DNA of 35,482 bases, taken from the IMG/VR virus record IMGVR_UViG_2529292997_000024; one strand, given 5' to 3'. This DNA comes from a virus (Duplodnaviria > Heunggongvirae > Uroviricota > Caudoviricetes > Peduoviridae). Positions 1 through 35,482 of the stretch are shown here, one piece after another. The notes beneath the pieces were generated by a model. That model did not search any database. It had not been told where the DNA came from and worked only from the letters and a program-made list of their open reading frames with translations. The translations under genes and the position numbers were made by a program. Numbering within the stretch: position 1 is the first letter of the stretch; the number at the start of each line of letters is the position of its first letter.

Positions 1-1362
1 ATGTTTAAACCGGAACTCCTTTCCCCGGCGGGAACGCTGAAAAATATGCGTTACGCTTTCGCTTATGGCGCAGATGCTGTTTATGCGGGCCAGCCGCGTT
101 ACTCCCTGCGTGTGCGCAACAACGAATTTAACCACGAAAATCTCCAGCTCGGCATCAATGAAGCCCACGCGCTGGGGAAAAAGTTTTATGTCGTGGTCAA
201 CATTGCACCGCACAACGCCAAGCTGAAAACCTTTATCCGTGACCTGAAACCGGTGGTGGAAATGGGGCCGGATGCGCTGATTATGTCCGATCCAGGGCTG
301 ATTATGCTGGTGCGTGAGCACTTCCCTGAAATGCCGATCCATCTCTCGGTACAGGCTAACGCCGTGAACTGGGCGACGGTGAAATTCTGGCAGCAAATGG
401 GCCTGACCCGCGTGATCCTCTCTCGCGAGCTGTCGCTGGAAGAGATTGAAGAGATCCGCAATCAGGTGCCGGATATGGAGGTAGAGATCTTCGTTCACGG
501 CGCGCTGTGCATGGCCTACTCCGGTCGCTGCCTGCTCTCTGGCTATATCAACAAGCGCGACCCGAACCAGGGCACCTGCACCAACGCCTGCCGCTGGGAA
601 TACAACGTCCAGGAAGGGAAAGAAGATGACGTTGGCAACATCGTACACAAGTACGAGCCGATTCCGGTGCAAAATGTTGAGCCGACGCTGGGTATCGGCG
701 CACCAACCGACAAAGTGTTTATGATCGAAGAGGCCCAGCGTCCGGGCGAGTATATGACCGCGTTTGAAGATGAGCACGGCACTTACATCATGAACTCGAA
801 AGATCTGCGCGCCATCGCCCATGTAGAACGCCTGACCAAAATGGGAGTGCATTCGCTGAAAATCGAAGGCCGTACCAAATCTTTCTACTATTGCGCACGC
901 ACCGCGCAGGTTTACCGTAAAGCTATCGATGACGCAGCTGCGGGAAAACCATTCGATACCAGCCTGCTGGAAACTCTGGAAGGTCTGGCGCATCGTGGCT
1001 ATACCGAAGGTTTCCTGCGTCGTCATACTCACGACGATTATCAGAACTACGAATACGGTTATTCAGTTTCTGACCGCCAGCAGTTTGTTGGTGAGTTTAC
1101 CGGTGAGCGCAAGGGCGACCTCGCGGCGGTAGCGGTGAAAAATAAATTCTCCGTTGGTGACAGCCTTGAGCTGATGACGCCGCAAGGCAACATTAACTTT
1201 ACCCTTGAGCACATGGAAAACGCCAAAGGTGAAGCTATGCCGGTCGCACCAGGCGATGGTTATACTGTGTGGCTCCCGGTCCCGCAGGATCTTGAGCTAA
1301 ATTACGCGCTCCTGATGCGTAATTTCTCCGGGGAAACCACGCGTAACCCCCACGGTAAGTGA
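1..1362 (+). CDS. yegQ: U32-family peptidase-like protein YegQ (RlhA-type 23S rRNA hydroxylation factor), complete 453 aa
   Basis: Full-length ORF starting MFKPELLSPAGTLKNMRYAF, recognised from memory as E. coli YegQ; host gene flanking the prophage on the left. Confidence 0.88.
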   Translation: MFKPELLSPAGTLKNMRYAFAYGADAVYAGQPRYSLRVRNNEFNHENLQLGINEAHALGKKFYVVVNIAPHNAKLKTFIRDLKPVVEMGPDALIMSDPGLIMLVREHFPEMPIHLSVQANAVNWATVKFWQQMGLTRVILSRELSLEEIEEIRNQVPDMEVEIFVHGALCMAYSGRCLLSGYINKRDPNQGTCTNACRWEYNVQEGKEDDVGNIVHKYEPIPVQNVEPTLGIGAPTDKVFMIEEAQRPGEYMTAFEDEHGTYIMNSKDLRAIAHVERLTKMGVHSLKIEGRTKSFYYCARTAQVYRKAIDDAAAGKPFDTSLLETLEGLAHRGYTEGFLRRHTHDDYQNYEYGYSVSDRQQFVGEFTGERKGDLAAVAVKNKFSVGDSLELMTPQGNINFTLEHMENAKGEAMPVAPGDGYTVWLPVPQDLELNYALLMRNFSGETTRNPHGK

Positions 1363-8513: not shown

Positions 8514-9152
8514 TTAACCACAGATGATATTGAAACGTTCTCCGGAAATCTTGACCATAATGTCAGACAGTTCGCTGACGGCATGGGCTTCAGATGATCC
8601 CGGAGCGTCAGGCTGAACAGCTATTACCGAAGCTCCACTTGCCAGCCCTGCTTTTATACCCGCAGATGCATCCTCAAATACCACGCATTCACCAGGCTCA
8701 AGGCCCAAAGCCAAAGCTGCTTTGATGTAACCCTCGGGACTTGGTTTTCCCGTCATTACATCTTCTGCACACACCATTACTATGGGTAAGGGGAGATTAG
8801 CCGCTTTCATCCTGTTTTCGGCAAGCATTCTGCCTGCCGAAGTGACAAGTGCCCAGCTATCCGGTGGCAGTTTTGATAAGAGTGCAGCGGCCCCTTTTAC
8901 TTCAGTAACGCCTTCTGTCGTGTTGATTTCAACCTCTTCGAGTGAGGCCGCGATTTTATTGGTTTTCTCACCTGCACCAATAAAATGCGTCAGTGTATCA
9001 ATCGTTTGCCGCCCGTGTGCGTAAGCAATCACAGCCTGAGTATCAAGACCGTATTCTGCACAAAAATCTCTCCAGACGCTTTCCACTACGGCTGTTGAAT
9101 CAACCAGCGTACCGTCCATATCGAATAAAAAACCCTTAGCGTTGAATATCAT
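8514..9152 (-). CDS. HAD-superfamily (class IA) phosphatase/hydrolase, cargo gene in the Z/fun slot
   Basis: N-terminal HAD motif I FLFDMDGTLVDS, plus a KPSPEG and a C-terminal FEDASAGIKAG motif. Start set at the second ATG (9152), which has an AAGGA Shine-Dalgarno with 6-nt spacing; the ORF track starts at 9158. Confidence 0.7.
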   Translation of the reverse strand: MIFNAKGFLFDMDGTLVDSTAVVESVWRDFCAEYGLDTQAVIAYAHGRQTIDTLTHFIGAGEKTNKIAASLEEVEINTTEGVTEVKGAAALLSKLPPDSWALVTSAGRMLAENRMKAANLPLPIVMVCAEDVMTGKPSPEGYIKAALALGLEPGECVVFEDASAGIKAGLASGASVIAVQPDAPGSSEAHAVSELSDIMVKISGERFNIICG

Positions 9153-9181
9153 TGCCATTCCTTAATGGTTGCAGAAGAAAG

Positions 9182-9820
9182 TTAATCAAACCATGTTTTT
9201 TCATCACCTTTCGCTACTCTCAGGCTGACAGCAATCTGCTCAGGCACAATTCTTGAAAGCGACAATTCAGGCAGGTCGTTGACATCAAAAAAATCAGCAT
9301 CGAGTGACTCATGGCTGATTGACAGGCTGCCACCTACTTCTTCACAGAGAAAAATCAGCTTGTAAACATGCCAGGGTAAAGGCGGATGGCCGTGAAGATT
9401 ACGATCCCAAACTCCCAATAGTTTAGTCACTCTGACTTTTAATCCGGTTTCTTCTTCGACCTCTCGACGCACAGCTTCAGAAGGTGTATCTCCAACATCT
9501 GCCCATCCGCCAGGAAGACTCCATAATCCATCTGCAGCCTCTTTCACCATCAGAATACGATTATTGCGCAGGATAAACGCACGCACATCTGTTTTGGGCG
9601 TCGCGTAACCCGTTTCCGATACATGAAACAAATCATTGCGGCTAATATCAAACTGCGAACTCAGCAGTCCAGCGGCAATTTCACGCAAGGCTTCATAGCG
9701 TTCCTTGTCAAAGACGTCTTTTGAATAGGTCAGGCCTGACTGCGCGAGGGCCTTTAGTCTCTGGGCAACAAAAATAAGCTTTTCTTGGGTCAACACTTCA
9801 GACATGTTTTTCATCTTCAT
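9182..9820 (-). CDS. Nudix hydrolase with an N-terminal extension, cargo gene in the Z/fun slot
   Basis: Nudix box GGWADVGDTPSEAVRREVEEETGL (Gx5Ex7REUxEExGU pattern); lies between G and FI, where P2 carries Z/fun. Confidence 0.7.
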   Translation of the reverse strand: MKMKNMSEVLTQEKLIFVAQRLKALAQSGLTYSKDVFDKERYEALREIAAGLLSSQFDISRNDLFHVSETGYATPKTDVRAFILRNNRILMVKEAADGLWSLPGGWADVGDTPSEAVRREVEEETGLKVRVTKLLGVWDRNLHGHPPLPWHVYKLIFLCEEVGGSLSISHESLDADFFDVNDLPELSLSRIVPEQIAVSLRVAKGDEKTWFD

Positions 9821-22125: not shown

Positions 22126-23898
22126 ATGACCATCACCACAGACACCACTCTTTTACACGACCCGCGTCGTCAGGCGGCGCTGCTGTACTGGCAGGGGTTT
22201 TCCGTGCCGCAGATTGCCGCCATGTTGCAGATGAAACGCCCGACAGTGCAGAGCTGGAAACAGCGCGACGGCTGGGACAACGTTGCCCCCATCAGCCGTG
22301 TCGAAATGAGCCTGGAAGCGCGGCTGACCCAGCTCATCATCAAACCGCAGAAAACCGGCGGTGACTTCAAGGAAATTGACCTGCTGGGACGCCAGATTGA
22401 ACGACTGGCACGGGTAAATCGTTACAGCCAGACCGGCAGCGAGGCAGACCTTAATCCGAACGTCGCTAACCGCAACAAAAGCGGGCGGCGCAAACCGAAA
22501 AAGAATTTTTTCAGTGACGAGGCCATCGAAAAGCTGGAGCAGATTTTCTTTGAGCAGTCTTTCGACTATCAGTTGCACTGGTATCGCGCCGGGCTTGAGC
22601 ACCGCATCCGCGATATCCTGAAATCCCGCCAGATTGGCGCGACGTTTTATTTTTCCCGCGAGGCGCTGCTGCGCGCCCTGAAAACCGGTCATAACCAGAT
22701 TTTTCTGTCGGCCAGTAAAACGCAGGCGTATGTGTTCCGCGAATACATCATTGCCTTTGCCCGGCTGGTTGACGTTGACCTGACCGGTGACCCGATTGTC
22801 CTGGGCAATAACGGTGCAAAACTGATTTTTCTCGGCACCAACTCCAACACCGCACAGAGCCATAACGGCGACCTGTACGTCGATGAGATTTTCTGGATCC
22901 CGAATTTTCAGGTACTGCGTAAGGTGGCATCAGGTATGGCCTCACAGAGTCACCTGCGCTCGACCTATTTCTCCACCCCGTCCACGCTGGCGCACGACGC
23001 CTACCCGTTCTGGTCAGGTGAACTGTTCAACCGGGGACGCGCCAGCGCCGCCGAACGCGTGGAAATCGACGTCAGTCATAACGCCCTTGCCGGTGGGCTT
23101 CTCTGTGCGGACGGCCAGTGGCGGCAGATTGTCACCATTGAGGACGCCCTGAAAGGCGGCTGCACGCTGTTCGACATTGAACAGCTCAAACGCGAAAACA
23201 GCGCCGACGATTTTAAAAACCTGTTCATGTGTGAATTTGTTGACGACAAGGCGTCGGTGTTCCCGTTCGAGGAGCTGCAACGCTGCATGGTCGACACGCT
23301 GGAAGAATGGGAAGACTATGCGCCGTTTGCCGCCAATCCGTTCGGCTCCCGCCCGGTATGGATTGGTTACGACCCGTCACACCGTGGCGACAGCGCCGGA
23401 TGCGTGGTGCTGGCACCACCGGTGGTGGCCGGTGGCAAATTCAGAATACTTGAGCGTCACCAGTGGAAAGGCATGGACTTTGCCACTCAGGCGGAATCCA
23501 TCCGCAAACTCACCGAAAAATACAACGTCGAATACATCGGTATTGATGCCACCGGCCTCGGTGTCGGCGTGTTCCAGCTCGTGCGCTCGTTCTATCCCGC
23601 CGCGCGCGATATCCGCTACACACCGGAAATGAAAACCGCAATGGTGCTCAAGGCAAAAGACGTTATCCGCCGTGGCTGTCTGGAATATGACGTCAGCGCC
23701 ACCGACATCACCAGCTCGTTTATGGCTATCCGAAAGACCATGACCAGCAGCGGACGCAGCGCCACCTATGAGGCCAGTCGCAGCGAGGAAGCCAGCCACG
23801 CCGACCTCGCCTGGGCGACCATGCACGCCCTGTTAAATGAGCCACTCACCGCCGGTATCAGCACCCCGCTGACATCCACCATTCTGGAGTTTTACTGA
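22126..23898 (+). CDS. P: Terminase large (ATPase) subunit P (590 aa)
   Basis: 590 aa from MTITTDTTLLHDP; stop overlaps the Q start (tgatg). Confidence 0.9.
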   Translation: MTITTDTTLLHDPRRQAALLYWQGFSVPQIAAMLQMKRPTVQSWKQRDGWDNVAPISRVEMSLEARLTQLIIKPQKTGGDFKEIDLLGRQIERLARVNRYSQTGSEADLNPNVANRNKSGRRKPKKNFFSDEAIEKLEQIFFEQSFDYQLHWYRAGLEHRIRDILKSRQIGATFYFSREALLRALKTGHNQIFLSASKTQAYVFREYIIAFARLVDVDLTGDPIVLGNNGAKLIFLGTNSNTAQSHNGDLYVDEIFWIPNFQVLRKVASGMASQSHLRSTYFSTPSTLAHDAYPFWSGELFNRGRASAAERVEIDVSHNALAGGLLCADGQWRQIVTIEDALKGGCTLFDIEQLKRENSADDFKNLFMCEFVDDKASVFPFEELQRCMVDTLEEWEDYAPFAANPFGSRPVWIGYDPSHRGDSAGCVVLAPPVVAGGKFRILERHQWKGMDFATQAESIRKLTEKYNVEYIGIDATGLGVGVFQLVRSFYPAARDIRYTPEMKTAMVLKAKDVIRRGCLEYDVSATDITSSFMAIRKTMTSSGRSATYEASRSEEASHADLAWATMHALLNEPLTAGISTPLTSTILEFY

Positions 23899-24932
23899 TG
23901 AGCAAGAAAAAAGGGAAAACACCGCAACCTGCAGCAAAAACAATGACCGCCAGCGCCCCGAAAATGGAGGCGTTCACCTTTGGTGAGCCGGTGCCGGTAC
24001 TCGACCGCCGTGACATTCTGGATTACGTCGAGTGCATCAGTAACGGCAGATGGTATGAGCCGCCAGTCAGCTTTACCGGTCTGGCAAAAAGCCTGCGTGC
24101 TGCCGTGCATCACAGCTCACCGATTTACGTCAAACGTAATATTCTGGCCTCGACATTTATCCCGCATCCGTGGCTTTCCCAGCAGGATTTCAGCCGCTTT
24201 GTGCTGGATTTTCTGGTGTTCGGTAATGCGTTTCTGGAAAAGCGTTACAGCACCACCGGTAAGGTCATCAGACTGGAAACCTCACCGGCAAAATATACCC
24301 GCCGTGGCGTGGAAGAGGATGTTTACTGGTGGGTGCCGTCCTTCCATGAGCCGACACCTTTCGCGCCCGGCTCCGTGTTTCACCTGCTGGAGCCGGATAT
24401 TAATCAGGAGCTGTACGGCCTGCCGGAATATCTCAGCGCCCTTAACTCTGCCTGGCTGAATGAGTCGGCCACGCTGTTCCGCCGCAAGTATTACGAAAAT
24501 GGCGCACATGCCGGATACATCATGTACGTCACCGATGCCGTGCAGGATCGCAACGATATCGAAATGCTTCGCGAAAACATGGTTAAGTCGAAAGGCCGCA
24601 ATAACTTTAAAAATCTGTTTCTCTATGCCCCGCAGGGGAAAGCCGACGGCATTAAAATTATCCCCCTCAGTGAAGTGGCGACGAAGGACGATTTTTTTAA
24701 TATCAAAAAAGCCAGCGCCGCTGACCTGCTGGACGCGCACCGCATCCCCTTTCAGTTGATGGGCGGCAAGCCGGAGAACGTCGGGTCGCTGGGTGATATT
24801 GAGAAAGTGGCAAAGGTCTTTGTCCGCAATGAGCTTATCCCGTTACAGGACAGGATTCGGGAAATAAACGGCTGGCTCGGTCAGGAGGTCATCCACTTTA
24901 AAAACTACTCACTGGACACTGACAACGGCTGA
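23898..24932 (+). CDS. Q: Portal protein Q (344 aa)
   Basis: Length and position match P2 gpQ, adjacent to cos. Confidence 0.9.
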   Translation: MSKKKGKTPQPAAKTMTASAPKMEAFTFGEPVPVLDRRDILDYVECISNGRWYEPPVSFTGLAKSLRAAVHHSSPIYVKRNILASTFIPHPWLSQQDFSRFVLDFLVFGNAFLEKRYSTTGKVIRLETSPAKYTRRGVEEDVYWWVPSFHEPTPFAPGSVFHLLEPDINQELYGLPEYLSALNSAWLNESATLFRRKYYENGAHAGYIMYVTDAVQDRNDIEMLRENMVKSKGRNNFKNLFLYAPQGKADGIKIIPLSEVATKDDFFNIKKASAADLLDAHRIPFQLMGGKPENVGSLGDIEKVAKVFVRNELIPLQDRIREINGWLGQEVIHFKNYSLDTDNG

Positions 24933-24936
24933 ACAT

Positions 24937-24959
24937 CGCCGCCTGCGGGCGGCTTTTTT
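24937..24959 (+). terminator. Rho-independent terminator after Q
   Basis: Stem gccgcc/ggcggc with loop tgcg, followed by tttttt. Confidence 0.7.
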
Positions 24960-25101: not shown

Positions 25102-25120
25102 GTGCTTTCCCCGCCTCGCC
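25102..25120. other. cos: cos site: 19-nt cohesive-end sequence of P2-type phages
   Basis: gtgctttccccgcctcgcc is the reverse complement of GGCGAGGCGGGGAAAGCAC, the P2 cohesive end as I recall it; lies about 170 bp beyond the Q stop. Confidence 0.75.
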
Positions 25121-25170
25121 CGCCCGCTTCGTGGGGCGGTTTTAATGCAGATGCATGTGAACACTCGAGA

Positions 25171-25258: not shown

Positions 25259-26308
25259 ATGTGCTACACTTTTATACAAACCTATGATAAAAGCGATAAA
25301 AAATCTTCCATTTTGGCGAACATTATGACGGATATTGAAACAGCTCGATGGAACACAGAAAGTGCCGCTTTGTTGGCACTATCAGAAATACATGGCGTTA
25401 GTTATTGGACTCTATATAAAGTTGCTCAAAAGGGAATCAGATTTAGAGACATTGTTACCAGCCAAACATTAGCCAACTTTGAGTATCTACTTGGAGTAAA
25501 ACTTCATCGCCAACCTTATTATTTGAATGAAGGCAATTGGTCTGTTTTTCGGGACAGCATGATTTCTACGGCTAAAATATTACTCACACATTATCATAAT
25601 AGTGGTTACAAAATCATCCACCATGGTTCTCCGAGCTATCCAGACAAGTTGAATGACCTGTCTGAGCCGCCTTTCTGGTTGTTTGCTCAAGGCAATGTAT
25701 CCTTGCTAGATAAAAAGTGTGTTGGAGTTGTCGGCACCAGAAACCCAACCGCACTTGGAATTTATTTAACTCAAGCAGTAATCTCGCAATTTATAGATTC
25801 GGATTATTCAACTGTAAGCGGTTTAGCATATGGTATAGATCAATCTGCACATGAAGCATCCCTGTTATTTAAAATACCGACAATTGCTGTGTTAGGTACT
25901 GGCGTAAACTCAAATTATCCCAAAAATAGTGGCGAGATGAGAGGCCATATTGTAAATAATGGCGGACTGATTCTTACTGAGTATTTACCAAACCAAAAAC
26001 CATCACAGGAAAACTTTGTTCGTAGAAATAGAATTCAAGCAGCTTTAAGTGATGTATTGATCCCAGTTGAATGGGGCCTAAAAAGTGGGACATCTCATAC
26101 TGTGAGATATGCTGCTCAATTAAAAAGAGCGATACTTTGTCCTTTACTTAGGGGAACTACACCTCAAGAAGAGATTAAACATGCCTTGTCAGAGTACTCA
26201 GCTACGATAATGAATATTCCACTATCCGATTTTAAAGACGTGCAAAGCTTAATTAAATCAGCATCCGGTGTAAAAACACAGCAACTTTCTCTTCTGGGAG
26301 ATGAATAA
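25259..26308 (+). CDS. DprA/Smf-like (DNA processing protein A fold) protein; ShosA-like candidate
   Basis: Rossmann-type DprA motifs CVGVVGTRNPTALG, SGLAYGIDQSAHEA, IAVLGTGVNSNYP, LILTEYLP and NFVRRNRIQAALSD; AT-rich; start could instead be the ATG at 25325. Confidence 0.7.
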   Translation: MCYTFIQTYDKSDKKSSILANIMTDIETARWNTESAALLALSEIHGVSYWTLYKVAQKGIRFRDIVTSQTLANFEYLLGVKLHRQPYYLNEGNWSVFRDSMISTAKILLTHYHNSGYKIIHHGSPSYPDKLNDLSEPPFWLFAQGNVSLLDKKCVGVVGTRNPTALGIYLTQAVISQFIDSDYSTVSGLAYGIDQSAHEASLLFKIPTIAVLGTGVNSNYPKNSGEMRGHIVNNGGLILTEYLPNQKPSQENFVRRNRIQAALSDVLIPVEWGLKSGTSHTVRYAAQLKRAILCPLLRGTTPQEEIKHALSEYSATIMNIPLSDFKDVQSLIKSASGVKTQQLSLLGDE

Positions 26309-26309
26309 T

Positions 26310-27584
26310 ATGTATTTAAAGGCAGTTATATTTTCAATCGCAGATGTTGTATTACCATTAACATCTAACACTCAACCTCAGGAACTAAAATCTAGAATCG
26401 ACTCTGAATTACGTAAGTTGTTTGCGTTTTTGTCATCAAAAGGGATTAAAGTTATCTTCTTGACAAATAAAAATAGAAACGTGAGAACACATGACGGGAT
26501 CGTAACACTAGACGAATACCTAAAAAGGAAATTCCCAGAATCAATTCACTTTTGCCGTGAACTCGACAACAACATACCAGCAAAACAAACAGGGAAGGCC
26601 ATAGATTTCATCATGGCTGCGTTAGAATTAAAACGAAACGAAATGATCTATGTAGGGCGTTCTCAGGAAGACTTACAAGCAGCTACCAACGGGAATACCC
26701 TATTTATTAATGCGACCTGGTATGAACCGGTTACTGAGTACGGTTTTCAATTTTCAGAACCCAAAGAAATCGCTAGATTTATTGATGTCTTTTGCTTAAG
26801 AGAGCAGTTGTGGGGATGGCAAGGGCATTTTAATGAAGATGTTCACTACTACGCCTTAGCACCATTTAGCACATATGTCCCTGAATTTACAATGTATTCA
26901 GCCAATGCAAGAGACCTCGCAAAGCTATCGGTTGGAAGCCCCGATTTTTGGATAAGATATCTTGGTGCTAGCATTTATTTCTCTGGCTTAAGTGAAGGAG
27001 CAAGTTTTATAACCACCTACGTTGGACATAACGCTGAAGATCCTTATAAACTAGCAAACATTATGGAGCATGACCTAAAAGGTTTAGCAGTCTCATTCAA
27101 AGGAAAGTATCTAAAAGATCTATTCTTACGACATACAACAGCTATTAAATCACAGCAAGCTCGGATAGCTAAGCAAGAAGTAAACATCACATCTCAAATA
27201 AACACCGTTAATTTAAATCCTGCCCCTATTAAAAACCTCATCACCGGCGAAAGATATACCAACCCTCCTAAATTGAAAGGTAAGAAAATATTAGTTATTG
27301 ATGATTTTTGCACTGAAGGAAATGCTCATGAAACAGCCAGAATGTATCTAAAAGCTGCAGGCGCAAATGTAATAAATATATCGTGGTTAAAAACCATCAA
27401 TCGTGACGTTTCTATCTGTGAACCAACTCGCAAGATACGGCCATGGGAGGCCAATACACTTGATGTTGATGACATTAACTATGTCGGTACGATTGGTTAT
27501 GCTGAAAATGTAACTCACGGTAGTGCACCTCAAGTGTTATCAGAAAAAATTCAACAATATGATAACTGGGACTGGCCACAATAA
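26310..27584 (+). CDS. PRTase-like (phosphoribosyltransferase-type PRPP-binding motif) protein with a large N-terminal region; ShosT-like candidate
   Basis: C-terminal KKILVIDDFCTEGNAHETA resembles the type I PRTase PRPP loop. Start set at the ATG at 26310, which has a GGGAG Shine-Dalgarno with 9-nt spacing (alternative ATG at 26301 overlaps the upstream gene by 8 nt). Confidence 0.7.
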   Translation: MYLKAVIFSIADVVLPLTSNTQPQELKSRIDSELRKLFAFLSSKGIKVIFLTNKNRNVRTHDGIVTLDEYLKRKFPESIHFCRELDNNIPAKQTGKAIDFIMAALELKRNEMIYVGRSQEDLQAATNGNTLFINATWYEPVTEYGFQFSEPKEIARFIDVFCLREQLWGWQGHFNEDVHYYALAPFSTYVPEFTMYSANARDLAKLSVGSPDFWIRYLGASIYFSGLSEGASFITTYVGHNAEDPYKLANIMEHDLKGLAVSFKGKYLKDLFLRHTTAIKSQQARIAKQEVNITSQINTVNLNPAPIKNLITGERYTNPPKLKGKKILVIDDFCTEGNAHETARMYLKAAGANVINISWLKTINRDVSICEPTRKIRPWEANTLDVDDINYVGTIGYAENVTHGSAPQVLSEKIQQYDNWDWPQ

Positions 27585-27759: not shown

Positions 27760-30015
27760 TTACCACTCATCAATCACTGGATATTTGAATTTTTTATTAT
27801 CATAAATCACCATCGCCCCACGCGCCAGCGCCTCAAGCTCCCATCGCTGAGGCCTGATACCGTTCTGAGCAAGGTCAACGCGGATACGGGTAATTTGCAA
27901 TCGTTCCGGCCGGGTCAGCCTGGCCGATGGTGCAATTTCATGTGGTTTTAACGGGCTTCCGTTTCTTTGCTGACGATTTGGTGTTCTCAGGCCGTGTTTT
28001 AATGCGCCCCTGAGCACCCTCACGACCTCCGGGTCATTCCATTCGATAACACCGTCATCAACCAGATTAAGCACTGCTGCGGCGTGTTCAGAAGGTGTGG
28101 GAGCCGGTAACGAAGTATCACCACTGGTGAGCTTTCCACAGTTATTGACAGGACTCCGAGGCGCGGCGATGCCGCTTTTTAAAGTCAAAGGCTCAACGAC
28201 CGGAACTTTCGGCACAATGCGCCAGTCCGTCGTTCTGGTGATATGAATATGACGCGCGCCGAGATGCGGCGCGTAAATGCCGACCACTCTCTCGACTTCT
28301 TCCTCGTACTCGTTAACTTCATCCGACGGGCTACGGGCGACTCTGACAGTCTGACAATCGCGCGGGACATTTGCCCCACCCTGCGCGCTGATATACAACG
28401 CAAAATCACCACTGTCTGCGGCGGCGCGTGCAGCCTCGACGCGCTCGTCAAACTCATCAGCAATGCTGACGCCGCGCGGCAATTTGCGTAGTTCACGGTA
28501 AGCCCCCATTGTCGGCAGGCCAACCGTTTTAAATTGCGGGATGCGCCACGTTGACGCCCATGCGGTAACAGCCGCTGCAGTGTCTTTCAGCGGCCTGCCG
28601 GTGTCGTTATCGAGCTGACCATCCAGTGCATAGCCGTCGATGTTTTTTGAAATGTATTTCGCGATATATCCCGCAGCACCGCCCCGGTTAAGGTGTTTTG
28701 CCTGAAAACGGTTTCGCGCGGCTCCTCTTTCGTCGCCATCCTCTTTGAGCGCATAGCGACGCATGATTTCGATAATCTGGTTACGCTGGCGTGAATTACA
28801 AAAAAGCATCATATGCCAGTGCGGCGTTCCGTCGTGGTGTGGCTCGACGACACGCAAACCGTAGACCTGTAAATCATTATCCTTGAATGCCGTGCGCATC
28901 AGGCTCCAGATACGGCAGAGATAACGCTGCGCATCCTTTGGATTAAATGCCTCATCGTTCCAGCCGTGATTAAGCTGCACGGTTTTACTTTCGCCTTTTC
29001 CTACCTGACGTGTCGGGTGATACTTTGACGGCGCGGTCAGCGTGATAAACATCCCCACATCACCCTCTGCAGCGGCGTAACGCTCAATACCGGCAATGGT
29101 GTTCATCAGCTCCATCCGGCGAATTTCAGGATTAGAAATACTGCCCATCACCTTACTGATAAGGTCGATGCGCTCGCCGGTTTCCCTGTTTTCAAGGTCA
29201 CACGATTTAAGAAATTCCAGATTTGCCTGGCGGCGCGCACGCACATCACGAATGGCGTGTTTACTGGCATAAGGAGAACGGTCTTTATTGACCTCCCCGA
29301 CAGCTATCAGTAACGCTTCATGCCAGCGCATACGCTGGCCTTTAAGCTGATGAGTCCACCACTCATCGTTAAACAGACGGGCAATGGCAGAATATGCCTG
29401 CCTCGTGGTCATCTGTCTTTTACGGTATTTTTTCCAGTAGAGAGGGGAAATATTGAAAGCTCGTGCAGCGCCAGCAACATGACCATACAGGTGATCCTGA
29501 GCCTCATCCGTAAACAGTGATTCTTTTTCGCCATGCGCATCCACCCAGGCATCGCTGAGTTCCTCATACATCATGAAAAGCTGCGATGAGATACGGGCGG
29601 CAAACTTTTTCAGCTCCTTGTCATTCATTCCCGGCAGGCGCGCATAGTGATCACGCTCTGCCAGAAACAGCAACGACGCGTCGGTGTTCATTTCATGGCG
29701 CTGATTCACACGCTCAATGCGCGGCCATAAACGACGCTGAAAAGTGGATGTGAGGAAATAAAACCCGTGCACCGGGCTTTTATTGCGCCGGATGTAGTCA
29801 TAGCGTGAAGTAAACAGCGAGCGCAAAAAGTAAGGCAGGCGGTTAATCGTGGATAAAACACCTTGCACCTGACGCATCTCGTCACGTGTAAGGGGTCTTT
29901 CGCGCCCGACGGCCTCGCGTGGCGCGTTCCATGCATAAGCACCGGTAAACGTCTTACCGGTGCCTGCGGCAAATGCTGACGGAGGGACAAAACGCCCGGA
30001 GGCTTTAACGGCCAT
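27760..30015 (-). CDS. A: Replication initiation protein A (rolling-circle nickase)
   Basis: Position and length (751 aa from the first ATG at 30015) fit P2 gpA (about 761 aa as I recall); the ORF track extends 14 codons further to 30057, where the codon is TTG. Confidence 0.88.
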   Translation of the reverse strand: MAVKASGRFVPPSAFAAGTGKTFTGAYAWNAPREAVGRERPLTRDEMRQVQGVLSTINRLPYFLRSLFTSRYDYIRRNKSPVHGFYFLTSTFQRRLWPRIERVNQRHEMNTDASLLFLAERDHYARLPGMNDKELKKFAARISSQLFMMYEELSDAWVDAHGEKESLFTDEAQDHLYGHVAGAARAFNISPLYWKKYRKRQMTTRQAYSAIARLFNDEWWTHQLKGQRMRWHEALLIAVGEVNKDRSPYASKHAIRDVRARRQANLEFLKSCDLENRETGERIDLISKVMGSISNPEIRRMELMNTIAGIERYAAAEGDVGMFITLTAPSKYHPTRQVGKGESKTVQLNHGWNDEAFNPKDAQRYLCRIWSLMRTAFKDNDLQVYGLRVVEPHHDGTPHWHMMLFCNSRQRNQIIEIMRRYALKEDGDERGAARNRFQAKHLNRGGAAGYIAKYISKNIDGYALDGQLDNDTGRPLKDTAAAVTAWASTWRIPQFKTVGLPTMGAYRELRKLPRGVSIADEFDERVEAARAAADSGDFALYISAQGGANVPRDCQTVRVARSPSDEVNEYEEEVERVVGIYAPHLGARHIHITRTTDWRIVPKVPVVEPLTLKSGIAAPRSPVNNCGKLTSGDTSLPAPTPSEHAAAVLNLVDDGVIEWNDPEVVRVLRGALKHGLRTPNRQQRNGSPLKPHEIAPSARLTRPERLQITRIRVDLAQNGIRPQRWELEALARGAMVIYDNKKFKYPVIDEW

Positions 30016-30280
30016 ATGAGCCAAAAGCCTCTGAACAACGCTTGCTGAGTTGCTCAACCTGCGCGTTTAAATCAGCAAAAGACTTTGCGCTTCCGGTCAG
30101 AATATCGTGATGCATCAGGCCGGAAACGAGCTGGCTTAATTTCGGGTAATAACCAACCACCGCCAGCCATTCCTGACCGGCGTTTTTACCGCTTTCAGCT
30201 CTCTTTTTCTCGTGGAGAATAAACTGAAAGCTGTCACTGGTAACGACATAACGTTCGCCAATTTCAATACGAATACTCAT
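30005..30280 (-). CDS. Small early-operon protein (orf83 position, 91 aa)
   Basis: ORF in the P2 B-to-A interval; stop just upstream of the A start. Confidence 0.6.
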   Translation of the reverse strand: MSIRIEIGERYVVTSDSFQFILHEKKRAESGKNAGQEWLAVVGYYPKLSQLVSGLMHHDILTGSAKSFADLNAQVEQLSKRCSEAFGSYGR

Positions 30281-31090: not shown

Positions 31091-31597
31091 TTAATGCAGA
31101 TATTGCTCTGGTTTTACCGACGTCAGAATTGTCGGTGCATACTCAAACAGGCTGAATAATTCACGTAATGCACGGAATAAAGCATCACGCCAGTAACATG
31201 ACTCTTCATTAATTCGCCAGTATGGCTGGTTAAATTCTTTTTCAGTCAATCCGGCATGCATAAATAAAGTACGACGCTGACTGACTGTTAAAAAACTAAT
31301 ATATGCATACTCACTTGCACCGACCTGACGACGTTTTGAGAATGCCCCACGCAATTCATCAATTGCACATACCAGTCGTTCACGTTCGACGTCGTTCATT
31401 TCTTCAAAACGCATCGTTGCGTGACGCTGTTTTAACTGCGCATGAAAGCAAACTGTTAGCCGTTCGCGCTCCATCATCTGATTATAATAATCACATGTAT
31501 CCTGCCAGCGAGGAACGGCAAGATGCTTACCAATTATCCGGCGCATAGCTGCTGGCTGTTTTTCAACGAGATTGAGCGTCATCACTGTCATTTCCAT
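31091..31597 (-). CDS. B: Replication protein B (helicase-loader-like)
   Basis: 168-aa ORF (166 aa from the second ATG), matching P2 gpB in length and position. Confidence 0.8.
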   Translation of the reverse strand: MEMTVMTLNLVEKQPAAMRRIIGKHLAVPRWQDTCDYYNQMMERERLTVCFHAQLKQRHATMRFEEMNDVERERLVCAIDELRGAFSKRRQVGASEYAYISFLTVSQRRTLFMHAGLTEKEFNQPYWRINEESCYWRDALFRALRELFSLFEYAPTILTSVKPEQYLH

Positions 31598-32573: not shown

Positions 32574-33587
32574 ATGGCAATCAAAAAACTCGATGATGGT
32601 CGATATGAAGTGGACATCCGCCCTACTGGACGTAATGGAAAACGCATCCGTAGGAAGTTTGATAAGAAAAGCGAAGCTGTCGCTTTCGAGAAATACACGT
32701 TGTACAACCACCACAATAAAGAATGGCTATCAAAACCAACAGACAAGCGACGTCTGTCGGAGCTGACACAGATCTGGTGGGATTTAAAGGGTAAACACGA
32801 AGAGCATGGGAAATCTAATCTTGGAAAAATTGAAATCTTCACAAAAATAACGAATGACCCATGCGCATTTCAAATTACGAAATCGCTTATCAGCCAGTAC
32901 TGCGCCACCCGAAGAAGTCAGGGTATTAAACCTTCGAGTATCAATCGTGATTTAACATGTATTAGCGGCATGTTTACAGCCCTGATTGAAGCGGAGTTAT
33001 TCTTTGGTGAGCACCCTATCAGAGGGACAAAAAGGCTTAAGGAGGAAAAACCAGACACAGGCTATCTCACGCAGGAAGAAATTGCCTTACTGCTTGCTGC
33101 TCTTGACGGCGACAACAAAAAGATTGCGATTCTTTGCCTGAGTACTGGAGCACGTTGGGGAGAAGCAGCTCGTTTGAAAGCAGAAAATATCATCCATAAC
33201 CGCGTCACGTTTGTTAAAACGAAAACAAACAAACCACGCACCGTCCCGATCTCAGAGGCTGTTGCCAAAATGATCGCGGATAACAAACGAGGTTTTTTAT
33301 TCCCTGATGCTGATTACCCTCGCTTCAGACGAACAATGAAAGCAATAAAACCGGATTTGCCAATGGGGCAAGCCACACATGCACTAAGGCACAGCTTTGC
33401 CACTCATTTCATGATTAATGGAGGAAGTATTATCACGCTACAACGGATACTAGGTCACACGCGGATTGAGCAAACTATGGTTTACGCTCATTTTGCGCCA
33501 GAGTACCTTCAGGACGCCATTTCTCTTAATCCGCTAAGAGGTGGTACTGAGGCCGAGAGTGTCCACACAGTGTCCACAGTAGAGTAA
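32574..33587 (+). CDS. int: Tyrosine integrase (337 aa)
   Basis: MAIKKLDDGRYEVDIRPTG... with C-terminal catalytic R...HxxR...Y region; GGAGGG ribosome-binding site 7 nt upstream; adjacent to the att core. Confidence 0.9.
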   Translation: MAIKKLDDGRYEVDIRPTGRNGKRIRRKFDKKSEAVAFEKYTLYNHHNKEWLSKPTDKRRLSELTQIWWDLKGKHEEHGKSNLGKIEIFTKITNDPCAFQITKSLISQYCATRRSQGIKPSSINRDLTCISGMFTALIEAELFFGEHPIRGTKRLKEEKPDTGYLTQEEIALLLAALDGDNKKIAILCLSTGARWGEAARLKAENIIHNRVTFVKTKTNKPRTVPISEAVAKMIADNKRGFLFPDADYPRFRRTMKAIKPDLPMGQATHALRHSFATHFMINGGSIITLQRILGHTRIEQTMVYAHFAPEYLQDAISLNPLRGGTEAESVHTVSTVE

Positions 33588-33850: not shown

Positions 33851-34168
33851 TCACTCTCCACATTTGAATGTCAGACGAGCGACGCCATGTAATCCTGCAC
33901 CTTCTGTCTTCAGGTCAACTATCTGCATTTTTTTGCCCTGAGTAACACAGAAATGAGCTGCATCATTTTTTACTATATTTTCTGCACCAGAAATTCTGCC
34001 CCTGGCTAAAGAAGCTTCGGCTTCGGTGTAGTATTGGTTATCGAGTTTACGCTGAATATTACTTTTATATGCAAGACCAAATTTACCGATACTTGTCTCA
34101 TCATTATGTACAGCACACCCAGACATAAGAAAAACACTAATTAATGATATAGCAGCTATCTTTTTCAT
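33851..34168 (-). CDS. yegR: YegR, small putative lipoprotein (105 aa)
   Basis: MKKIAAISLISVFLMSGCAV signal peptide with lipobox; host gene between the prophage and yegS. Confidence 0.7.
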   Translation of the reverse strand: MKKIAAISLISVFLMSGCAVHNDETSIGKFGLAYKSNIQRKLDNQYYTEAEASLARGRISGAENIVKNDAAHFCVTQGKKMQIVDLKTEGAGLHGVARLTFKCGE

Positions 34169-34582
34169 CTTACCTTCCCCCATTAAATACCAACGACACG
34201 CTCTGGTGTTAAAATATAATAATGGCATGATTATTATAATTGAATAGGATTATAATAAATGTTCTGTACAACATTTCCTACATAAGTAGGAATTACATAC
34301 ACGGAGGCCCTTCCGGGTAACCCCATGGGGGGGTTAATATATTTTTAATAGTATATTGAAGATGCCACTGTTTAGTTGAATATTAGGTATATGCTCTTTT
34401 TTGAAATTTACCTATGGCTACCGTTAACATTCACTGTCCCCATTGCAAGCTCCTGGTGGTAACCACTGAATCCTCTATACTTGAACTGATTTTTTATCCT
34501 CCGACTTTCATCCTGTTCTGACTCCACCTTTTCTTTTCTGCTCTACACTATCTACAGACCAATCATAAAGGCACATACGATC

Positions 34583-35482
34583 ATGGCAGAATTTCCCGCC
34601 AGCTTACTGATTCTTAATGGCAAAAGTACTGACAATTTACCATTGCGCGAAGCAATTATGCTGTTGCGTGAGGAAGGAATGACGATCCATGTGCGGGTCA
34701 CCTGGGAGAAAGGCGATGCCGCACGATATGTAGAGGAGGCCCGGAAGTTGGGCGTCGCAACGGTGATTGCCGGTGGTGGCGATGGCACCATTAATGAAGT
34801 TTCTACGGCGTTGATTCAGTGTGAGGGGGATGACATACCCGCGCTAGGAATTTTGCCATTAGGAACCGCCAATGATTTTGCCACCAGTGTAAGGATTCCT
34901 GAGGCACTGGATAAGGCGCTGAAACTGGCAATTGCCGGTGACGCCATTGCGATAGATATGGCGCAGGTCAACAAACAAACCTGTTTTATTAATATGGCGA
35001 CAGGCGGATTTGGGACGCGTATTACCACAGAAACGCCGGAAAAATTAAAAGCCGCGCTGGGTGGCGTCTCTTACATCATTCATGGCTTAATGCGCATGGA
35101 TACTCTGCAACCGGACCGTTGTGAGATCCGCGGTGAAAACTTTCACTGGCAAGGTGACGCCCTGGTCATTGGTATTGGTAACGGGCGTCAGGCCGGTGGC
35201 GGTCAGCAATTGTGCCCGAACGCGTTAATTAACGATGGCTTGCTGCAACTGCGCATTTTTACCGGCGATGAAATTCTTCCGGCTCTCGTATCAACATTAA
35301 AATCTGACGAAGATAACCCGAATATTATCGAAGGCGCTTCGTCGTGGTTTGATATACAAGCCCCACACGAAATCACTTTTAATCTTGATGGCGAACCGTT
35401 GAGCGGACAAAACTTTCATATTGAAATACTTCCGGCGGCGTTGCGTTGTCGATTACCACCAGATTGCCCATTGTTGCGTTAA
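34583..35482 (+). CDS. yegS: YegS lipid kinase (diacylglycerol-kinase-like fold), complete 299 aa
   Basis: [32 protein letters not shown]... with GGDGT motif; host gene ending at the window edge. Confidence 0.88.

Follow-up and report, generated by a model that had tools for sequence, protein, structure and literature searches.

Background

A general link between PRTases and DprA was noted by Iyer et al. in 2017 (PMC5512222), and a DprA+PRTase pair of the P2 hotspot, a hotspot which adjoins cos, protects against T7 and lambda (Rousset et al. 2022, PMC9122126). Crystal structures of ShosT and ShosA are those of the E. coli APEC O1 proteins, and they were reported by Pu et al. (2025, Nat Commun; PMC11961720) and Yang et al. 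(2026, NAR; PMC12961424). Both crystallographic studies number ShosT as 424 residues (PMC11961720, PMC12961424), and the crystals show two Rossmann-type domains with boundaries at 1-164 and 165-424 (PMC11961720, PMC12961424).

Expression of ShosT perturbs purine metabolism and is accompanied by filamentation and DNA duplications; ShosA neutralises the toxicity without binding ShosT, the pair defends against phage, and ShosA is able to bind ssDNA and RecA (PMC11961720/PMC12961424). Two triggers are reported: host shut-off by T7 Gp0.7, acting on the unstable ShosA, and phage ssDNA, acting via ShosA-RecA-ssDNA. The PRTase of ShosT is non-canonical: it is a monomer, its sheet has six strands and its PPi loop is nine residues long (PMC12961424). 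ShosT binds PRPP-Mg and none of the purines tested (PMC11961720/PMC12961424). In the numbering of the papers, the PRTase mutant D331A/D332A has no toxicity (PMC11961720), R285E likewise abolishes it (PMC11961720/PMC12961424), and R56A, in the N-terminal active site, lowers it only marginally (PMC11961720).

The N-terminal domain has been compared by Pu et al. with the HAD-type pyrophosphatase BT2127, which it resembles, and purified ShosT consumes PPi in a Mg-independent manner in an end-point assay (1 uM protein, 100 uM PPi, 30 min, single end-point) (PMC11961720). An orthophosphate sits at the HAD site with R56, N53, K54 and K92 as ligands, and in the PPi co-crystal 8zvd it is the product phosphate; Pu et al. 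proposed that PPi hydrolysis pulls the PRTase reaction (PMC11961720). The text on PPi hydrolysis in that paper gives neither kinetics nor catalytic-residue controls. Yang et al. described the domain first as of 'unknown function' and later took over the pyrophosphatase view of Pu et al. (PMC12961424). The HAD catalytic motifs are not discussed in either paper: the sole mention of 'haloacid' is in a reference, and 'nucleophile' is used of the PRTase alone (PMC11961720/PMC12961424).

The ShosTA cassette and its prophage

The window analysed here, i.e. the whole stretch of 35,482 nucleotides, contains the following landmarks:

1..1362, U32 peptidase gene (YegQ-like), at the left window end
23898..24932, P2-type portal gene
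25102..25120, minus strand, P2-type cos 19-mer GGCGAGGCGGGGAAAGCAC, exact match, between the portal gene and shosA
25325..26308, plus strand, shosA, DprA-like antitoxin gene, 327 aa from M23
26310..27584, plus strand, shosT, toxin gene, 424 aa from ATG 26310
27760..30057, minus strand, P2 gpA replication gene
32574..33587, phage integrase gene, in the right part of the window
34583..35482, YegS-like lipid kinase gene, after the integrase, at the right window end

The window is an integrated P2-like prophage, since the U32 peptidase and YegS-like kinase genes lie at its ends and the integrase gene inside. In E. coli K-12 the yegQ-yegS interval holds a cryptic P2 remnant. ShosTA is cargo of the cos-adjacent hotspot in this prophage. 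G+C is 0.38-0.42 across 25-28 kb versus 0.53-0.58 in the adjoining kilobases, and the low-G+C region with ShosTA is placed between the portal gene and the gpA replication gene. The P2 cos 19-mer has a single exact occurrence in the window, with 0.01 expected by chance. The P2-hotspot setting of the pair is that of the DprA+PRTase system (Rousset et al. 2022, PMC9122126). GC-rich hairpins resembling terminators are present at 24938..24953, directly after the portal gene, and at 25120..25139, abutting cos, and a promoter scan around the cassette gave 7 sites versus 9.1 expected from shuffled sequence, i.e. no excess.

Of 5426 complete E. coli genomes, 30 carry the 2.9-kb ShosTA island, and Peduovirus P24C9 and phage 10W have it with 100% identity. 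In the GenBank/RefSeq records of the island, those of P24C9 and phage 10W included, the toxin is labelled 'hypothetical protein'. In E. coli strain 4114 (NZ_CP071328.1) the island aligned as two pieces and the matched region includes an annotated IS5-family transposase, which suggests that the cassette of this strain is inactivated by insertion.

Identity and numbering of ShosT and ShosA

By its sequence, the product of 26310..27584 (+) is ShosT, which is the toxin in ShosTA, a toxin-antitoxin and abortive-infection system of two genes. The PADLOC ShosT model (PDLC03012) covers positions 1-427 of 427 (E 4e-296), the protein shares 100% identity with PDB 8zvb/8zvc/8zvd across 427 aa, and its residues 3-427 match PDB 9w2p/9w2q. 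There are zero differences at the protein level from the ShosT of APEC O1 studied by Pu et al. (2025, Nat Commun) and Yang et al. (2026, NAR), and the upstream ShosA is the same; 8zvc and 9w2q are PRPP complexes of a protein identical to that of the window. The nature of the N-terminal part of ShosT is therefore a question already answered by the crystallography of 2025 and 2026 on the identical protein.

The longest shosT ORF (ATG 26301, 427 aa) overshoots. The Shine-Dalgarno GGAG at 26297-26300 sits 9 nt upstream of ATG 26310, at a proper distance for this codon but not for ATG 26301; the homologues begin MxLK; and, because this agrees with the numbering of the papers, the true start is ATG 26310 (M4), where a preliminary description of this DNA had also placed it. 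A residue number in the papers is consequently the ORF number minus 3, and ORF numbers are used below unless the papers are named.

The longest ORF containing shosA (25259..26308) extends beyond the start at M23 (nt 25325), a start which was assigned because the PADLOC ShosA model matches this upstream ORF from residue 23 (E 2e-231) and because ShosA residues 1-327 match PDB 9vzo over the full length; 8zva also matches. Pfam DNA_processg_A (PF02481) is found in ShosA with E 1e-59. The shosA stop codon (26306-26308) ends 1 nt ahead of the shosT start.

Domain organization of ShosT

The predicted structure of ShosT is that of 8zvb/8zvc and consists of two well-folded domains (pLDDT 92). The domains and the main PRTase motif are:

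26310..26801, plus strand, cap-less HAD-fold N-terminal domain spanning ORF residues 4-167 (1-164 in the papers), a pyrophosphatase domain according to PMC11961720
26802..27581, plus strand, type I PRTase domain of non-canonical form, spanning ORF residues 168-427 (165-424 in the papers)
27288..27326, plus strand, PRPP-binding loop (I330-L-V-I-D334-D335-F-C-T-E-G-N-A342), placed by Pfam, PDB profile matches and mutants

The interval 26310-27250, which lies inside the 427-codon ORF 26301..27584 (+), had been flagged as an unassigned region of about 300 aa in front of a short PRTase-like motif. This extent was not borne out: the separate domain has about 164 residues, and half of the flagged stretch, 26802-27250 (ORF residues 168-317), is the first half of the PRTase domain and holds H243, K283 and R288. 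A novel N-terminal domain of about 300 residues was accordingly rejected. The suggestion of a second enzymatic domain held in so far as a HAD-like domain, reported to be a pyrophosphatase (PMC11961720), precedes the PRTase, and failed as to its size. The observation that the PRTase signal is short in sequence was sound. In fact, Pfam PF00156 matches ShosT residues 306-360 only (E 1e-4; its 22 bits fall short of the 26.3-bit cutoff), and the matches of a 48-sequence family profile to PDB PRTases are confined to positions ~294-350, around the PRPP loop. That loop, which reads ILVIDDFCTEGN (a hydrophobic strand, then DD, then T-x-G), is the sole part that sequence profiles recognise as PRTase, because the ShosT PRTase is non-canonical. 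A Pfam-style match thus badly underestimates the catalytic domain, as the domain boundary shows.

Among the ShosT homologues there is no variation at D334, D335, H243 and R288 and hardly any at K283; H243, in the long PPi loop, and K283 and R288, in the flexible loop, touch PRPP in the complexes and are needed for toxicity (PMC11961720/PMC12961424). For the C-terminal part the best non-self Foldseek match was H. pylori ComF (7p0h_A, E 2.8e-4, 209 columns), a protein not mentioned in PMC11961720 or PMC12961424. ComF is a PRTase-fold competence protein in the pathway of DprA, and the PRTase of ShosT is paired with the DprA-like ShosA. Like ShosT, ComFC (H. pylori, 7p0h), RqlH/PsyrT and retron-effector PRTase modules are of PRTase fold and occur alongside DprA or in conflict systems; the similarity is weak, however, and they have other partners, namely a zinc finger or a helicase. 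Moreover, ComFC binds ssDNA and is no toxin, whereas ShosT is a toxin.

Structure comparison gives the N-terminal domain a Rossmannoid HAD core fold, and its best structural neighbours are phosphomonoesterases. The degenerate HAD-like pattern that the preliminary description had mentioned with little confidence proved to be real. Pfam PF00702 matches ShosT residues 33-130 (E 3e-4, 21.7 bits versus a gathering cutoff of 26.4) and HAD_2 matches residues 41-136 (E 5e-3, 17.5 bits versus 23.8), while many homologues at 35-42% identity clear the Pfam HAD thresholds (e.g. P0092, 38.7 bits). A profile of the domain searched against PDB matched HAD-IA phosphatases, with 2hi0 at E 8e-7 and motifs II, III and IV aligned, the corresponding ShosT segments being 'LTNK', 'IPAKQ' and 'YVGRSQED'. 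In Pfam scans of ten homologues the HAD profiles match only positions ~75-178, so that motif I and the cap are outside their coverage; a cap domain is absent in the model of ShosT, and the Pfam HAD matches miss the cap positions. When the N-terminal-domain profile was compared by hhalign with the window's own canonical HAD (8514..9158), only the motif III-IV part aligned, with a probability of 3%.

The HAD-IA phosphatases, such as the putative phosphoglycolate phosphatase 2hi0, differ from ShosT in having the C1 cap, a motif I of D-x-D and a motif IV of G-D, against S-x-A and G-R in ShosT. BT2127, the HAD-type ('type III') pyrophosphatase for inorganic PPi from Bacteroides thetaiotaomicron (3qu2 etc.), ranked 9 among the HAD neighbours of ShosT and was not the closest, i.e. 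no specific closeness to BT2127 over HADs in general was found. According to the titles of its PDB entries, BT2127 possesses a cap domain that is seen both open and closed, and Asp13 and Glu47 were mutated in the deposited entries; ShosT is without the cap and without the Asp residues.

With a mean top-residue frequency of 0.46, versus 0.50 and 0.49 in the PRTase domain, the N-terminal domain equals the PRTase domain in conservation and is therefore functional, not decaying. We regard its fold and ancestry as settled, its chemistry as only half so.

HAD motifs of the N-terminal domain

In HAD enzymes the motif I Asp forms an aspartyl-phosphate during catalysis, and carboxylates of motifs I and IV hold Mg2+. 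The peptides quoted in the preliminary description are all present in the ORF (AVIFSIAD at residues 8-15, VIFLTNK at 51-57 and IYVGRSQEDLQAA at 116-128), and the motifs were located as follows:

26325..26351, plus strand, degenerate HAD motif I (V9-I-F-S12-I-A14-D15-V16-V17), from the sister-clade alignment
26463..26468, plus strand, HAD motif II (T55-N56), aligned to 'VVSNK' of 2hi0
26583..26585, plus strand, HAD motif III lysine K95 (paper K92), aligned to the K of 'RRKP' in 2hi0
26655..26672, plus strand, HAD motif IV remnant G119-R120-S-Q-E-D124, aligned to 'GDSEID' of 2hi0

Strand beta1 comprises residues 8-11 in the predicted structure, and it is followed by Ser12 at the site of the nucleophile Asp and Ala14 at the Asp+2 site. 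The register of motif I is fixed because a sister clade, described below, reads V-I-F-D-L-D-G-T-L against V-I-F-S-I-A-D-V-V in ShosT. Position 12 is S, G or A in 48/48 close homologues. N56 is found in 46/48 homologues, and the backbone of N56/K57 (paper N53/K54) holds the phosphate in 8zvd (PMC11961720). K95 is a lysine in 46/48 homologues and K/R in 59/59 representatives. In motif IV an Arg (R120) replaces the first Asp and the second (D124) is invariant. The published phosphate ligand R56 (ORF R59) is a Trp in 26/48 homologues.

A sister clade with intact HAD motifs

The N-terminal-domain profile was searched against 1.84 billion cluster representatives and returned 1247 proteins at E <= 1e-3. 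Nearly all of the strong matches are 380-430 residues long and begin with the domain, and the PRTase DD motif was present in 60/60 full-length representatives aligned; therefore all the aligned representatives are HAD-PRTase fusions. They split cleanly into a ShosT clade (n=39, including the protein of the window) and a sister clade (n=20), which compare as follows:

Nucleophile position (ORF 12): G/S/A/N/C in the ShosT clade, D in 0/39; D in 20/20 of the sister clade
Position 16 (ORF V16): mostly V in the ShosT clade; T in 19/20 of the sister clade
First motif IV Asp (ORF 120): N/A/S/R in the ShosT clade, D in 0/39; D in 17/20 of the sister clade
K95 and D124: kept in both clades

The sister clade (e.g. 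P0227, P0231, P0244, P0208) shares with ShosT the two-domain architecture and the PRTase DD motif at ~24-25% identity, and its proteins have 380-407 aa at the loci L001, L002, L004 and L005. Its HAD motifs are intact (DxDGT or DxSxT, S, K, GDxxxD); it keeps the canonical HAD catalytic residues, whereas ShosT has neither the nucleophile Asp nor the first Asp of motif IV. A DprA-like gene is directly upstream of the sister-clade gene in 4/4 loci checked, which are:

L001, 451-2791
L002, 1471-3784
L004, 2883-5191
L005, 85-2446

At L004 the pair adjoins DNA methyltransferases and a CHAT/TPR protein.

Canonical HAD catalysis is implausible in ShosT because both Asp residues are lost together across the clade, and we consider it unlikely for the N-terminal domain. 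The coupled loss fits with the reported Mg-independence, which is untypical of HAD enzymes, and with the weak R56A phenotype. What this comparison adds to the published work is modest: the clade-wide loss of both HAD Asp residues, set against an intact sister clade, is absent from PMC11961720 and PMC12961424.

Role of the N-terminal domain

The flagged interval corresponds to the first 314 residues of ShosT, composed of a HAD-fold domain and the N-terminal half of the PRTase. The HAD-fold domain keeps a phosphate-binding half-site (T55/N56, K95, D124) but is without the nucleophile Asp and without the first Asp of motif IV, and the N-terminal half of the enlarged monomeric PRTase supplies the PPi loop and the flexible-loop PRPP ligands. 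We consider this account, with the N-terminal domain as an accessory module, very probable. The N-terminal domain may then handle the PPi/phosphate side of the PRTase reaction, for instance by pulling it forward, and would be neither the toxic activity nor the phage sensor. A role in sensing or in setting specificity, as proposed in the preliminary description, found no evidence: R56A is marginal versus the abolition of toxicity by D331A/D332A, and the published triggers work via ShosA. A regulatory or ligand-binding role may nevertheless apply to the domain, because the canonical HAD catalytic Asp is missing.

Whether ShosT truly hydrolyses PPi through this domain stands at about an even chance, because the canonical catalytic residues are absent. 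Two readings are live, namely a weak, non-canonical PPase and a phosphate/PPi-binding pseudo-enzyme whose half-site is under selection. According to a stronger form of the latter, the domain is a dead HAD whose ligand is phosphate, PPi or a phosphorylated metabolite and which regulates the PRTase or positions it allosterically, a sensor or regulator not far from the proposal of the preliminary description; the reported PPi consumption would be marginal or come from elsewhere. The joint loss of both Asp residues, the nucleophile and the first one of motif IV, throughout the 39 ShosT-clade representatives agrees with this, as do the conservation of K95, N56 and D124 in a domain conserved as much as the PRTase, the phosphate bound at the HAD site (PMC11961720), the absent cap, and the marginal effect of R56A at a position (R59 in the ORF) that is not conserved. 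However, an assay of PPi consumption has been published, as has a PPi co-crystal that holds the product phosphate (PMC11961720), phosphate is the sole known ligand, and the published triggers work via ShosA, not ShosT. We regard a dead HAD as a tentative proposal, somewhat doubtful as it stands. Equally tentative is its evolutionary extension, by which such a pseudo-enzyme would gate or tune the PRTase toxin in the ShosT clade, the catalytic ancestor surviving in the DprA-linked sister clade.

It is very improbable that the domain is a phosphatase removing the 5'-phosphate, or another one, from the PRTase product to leave a riboside and not a nucleotide: the DprA-linked sister clade does keep the full phosphatase motif set and phosphomonoesterases are the best structural neighbours, but the nucleophile is missing in ShosT and in its entire clade. 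The reading of all of ShosT as a single canonical PRTase, extended at its N-terminus by a long stretch that is disordered or idiosyncratic, has practically no likelihood left. The PRPP loop alone is detectable by Pfam, as this would have it, but the predicted structure and the crystals agree on two folded domains and the HAD homology is significant; the single canonical PRTase, which the preliminary description had named as the outcome that would overturn it, was rejected on the two domains seen in the model and in the PDB entries.

The loss of the HAD Asp residues against the intact sister clade offers a cheap and concrete test of the model in which a PPase pulls the PRTase reaction. The sister clade is also a route towards the substrate of the ShosT toxin: if the comparison is correct, its chemistry, perhaps that of a phosphatase for the product of the PRTase, could give a hint of the acceptor and the product of ShosT.

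Other cargo and ORFs of the prophage

In the low-GC right-hand part of the prophage lie two ORFs, 31091..31597 (minus strand, 168 aa) and 33851..34228 (minus strand, 125 aa), with zero Pfam/PADLOC matches. A second low-GC cargo pair is located at 8514..9820 on the minus strand, between the tail sheath and tail-fibre assembly genes (P2 Z/fun-type position). It is composed of a canonical HAD_2 hydrolase (8514..9158, 214 aa, Pfam E 5e-22) and a NUDIX hydrolase (212 aa, E 8e-19) that carries a Nudix_N domain and weakly matches the PADLOC candidate PDC-S07 (E 7e-10). At a coverage of at least 80%, this HAD_2/NUDIX pair is present in 19 of 5426 complete E. coli genomes.
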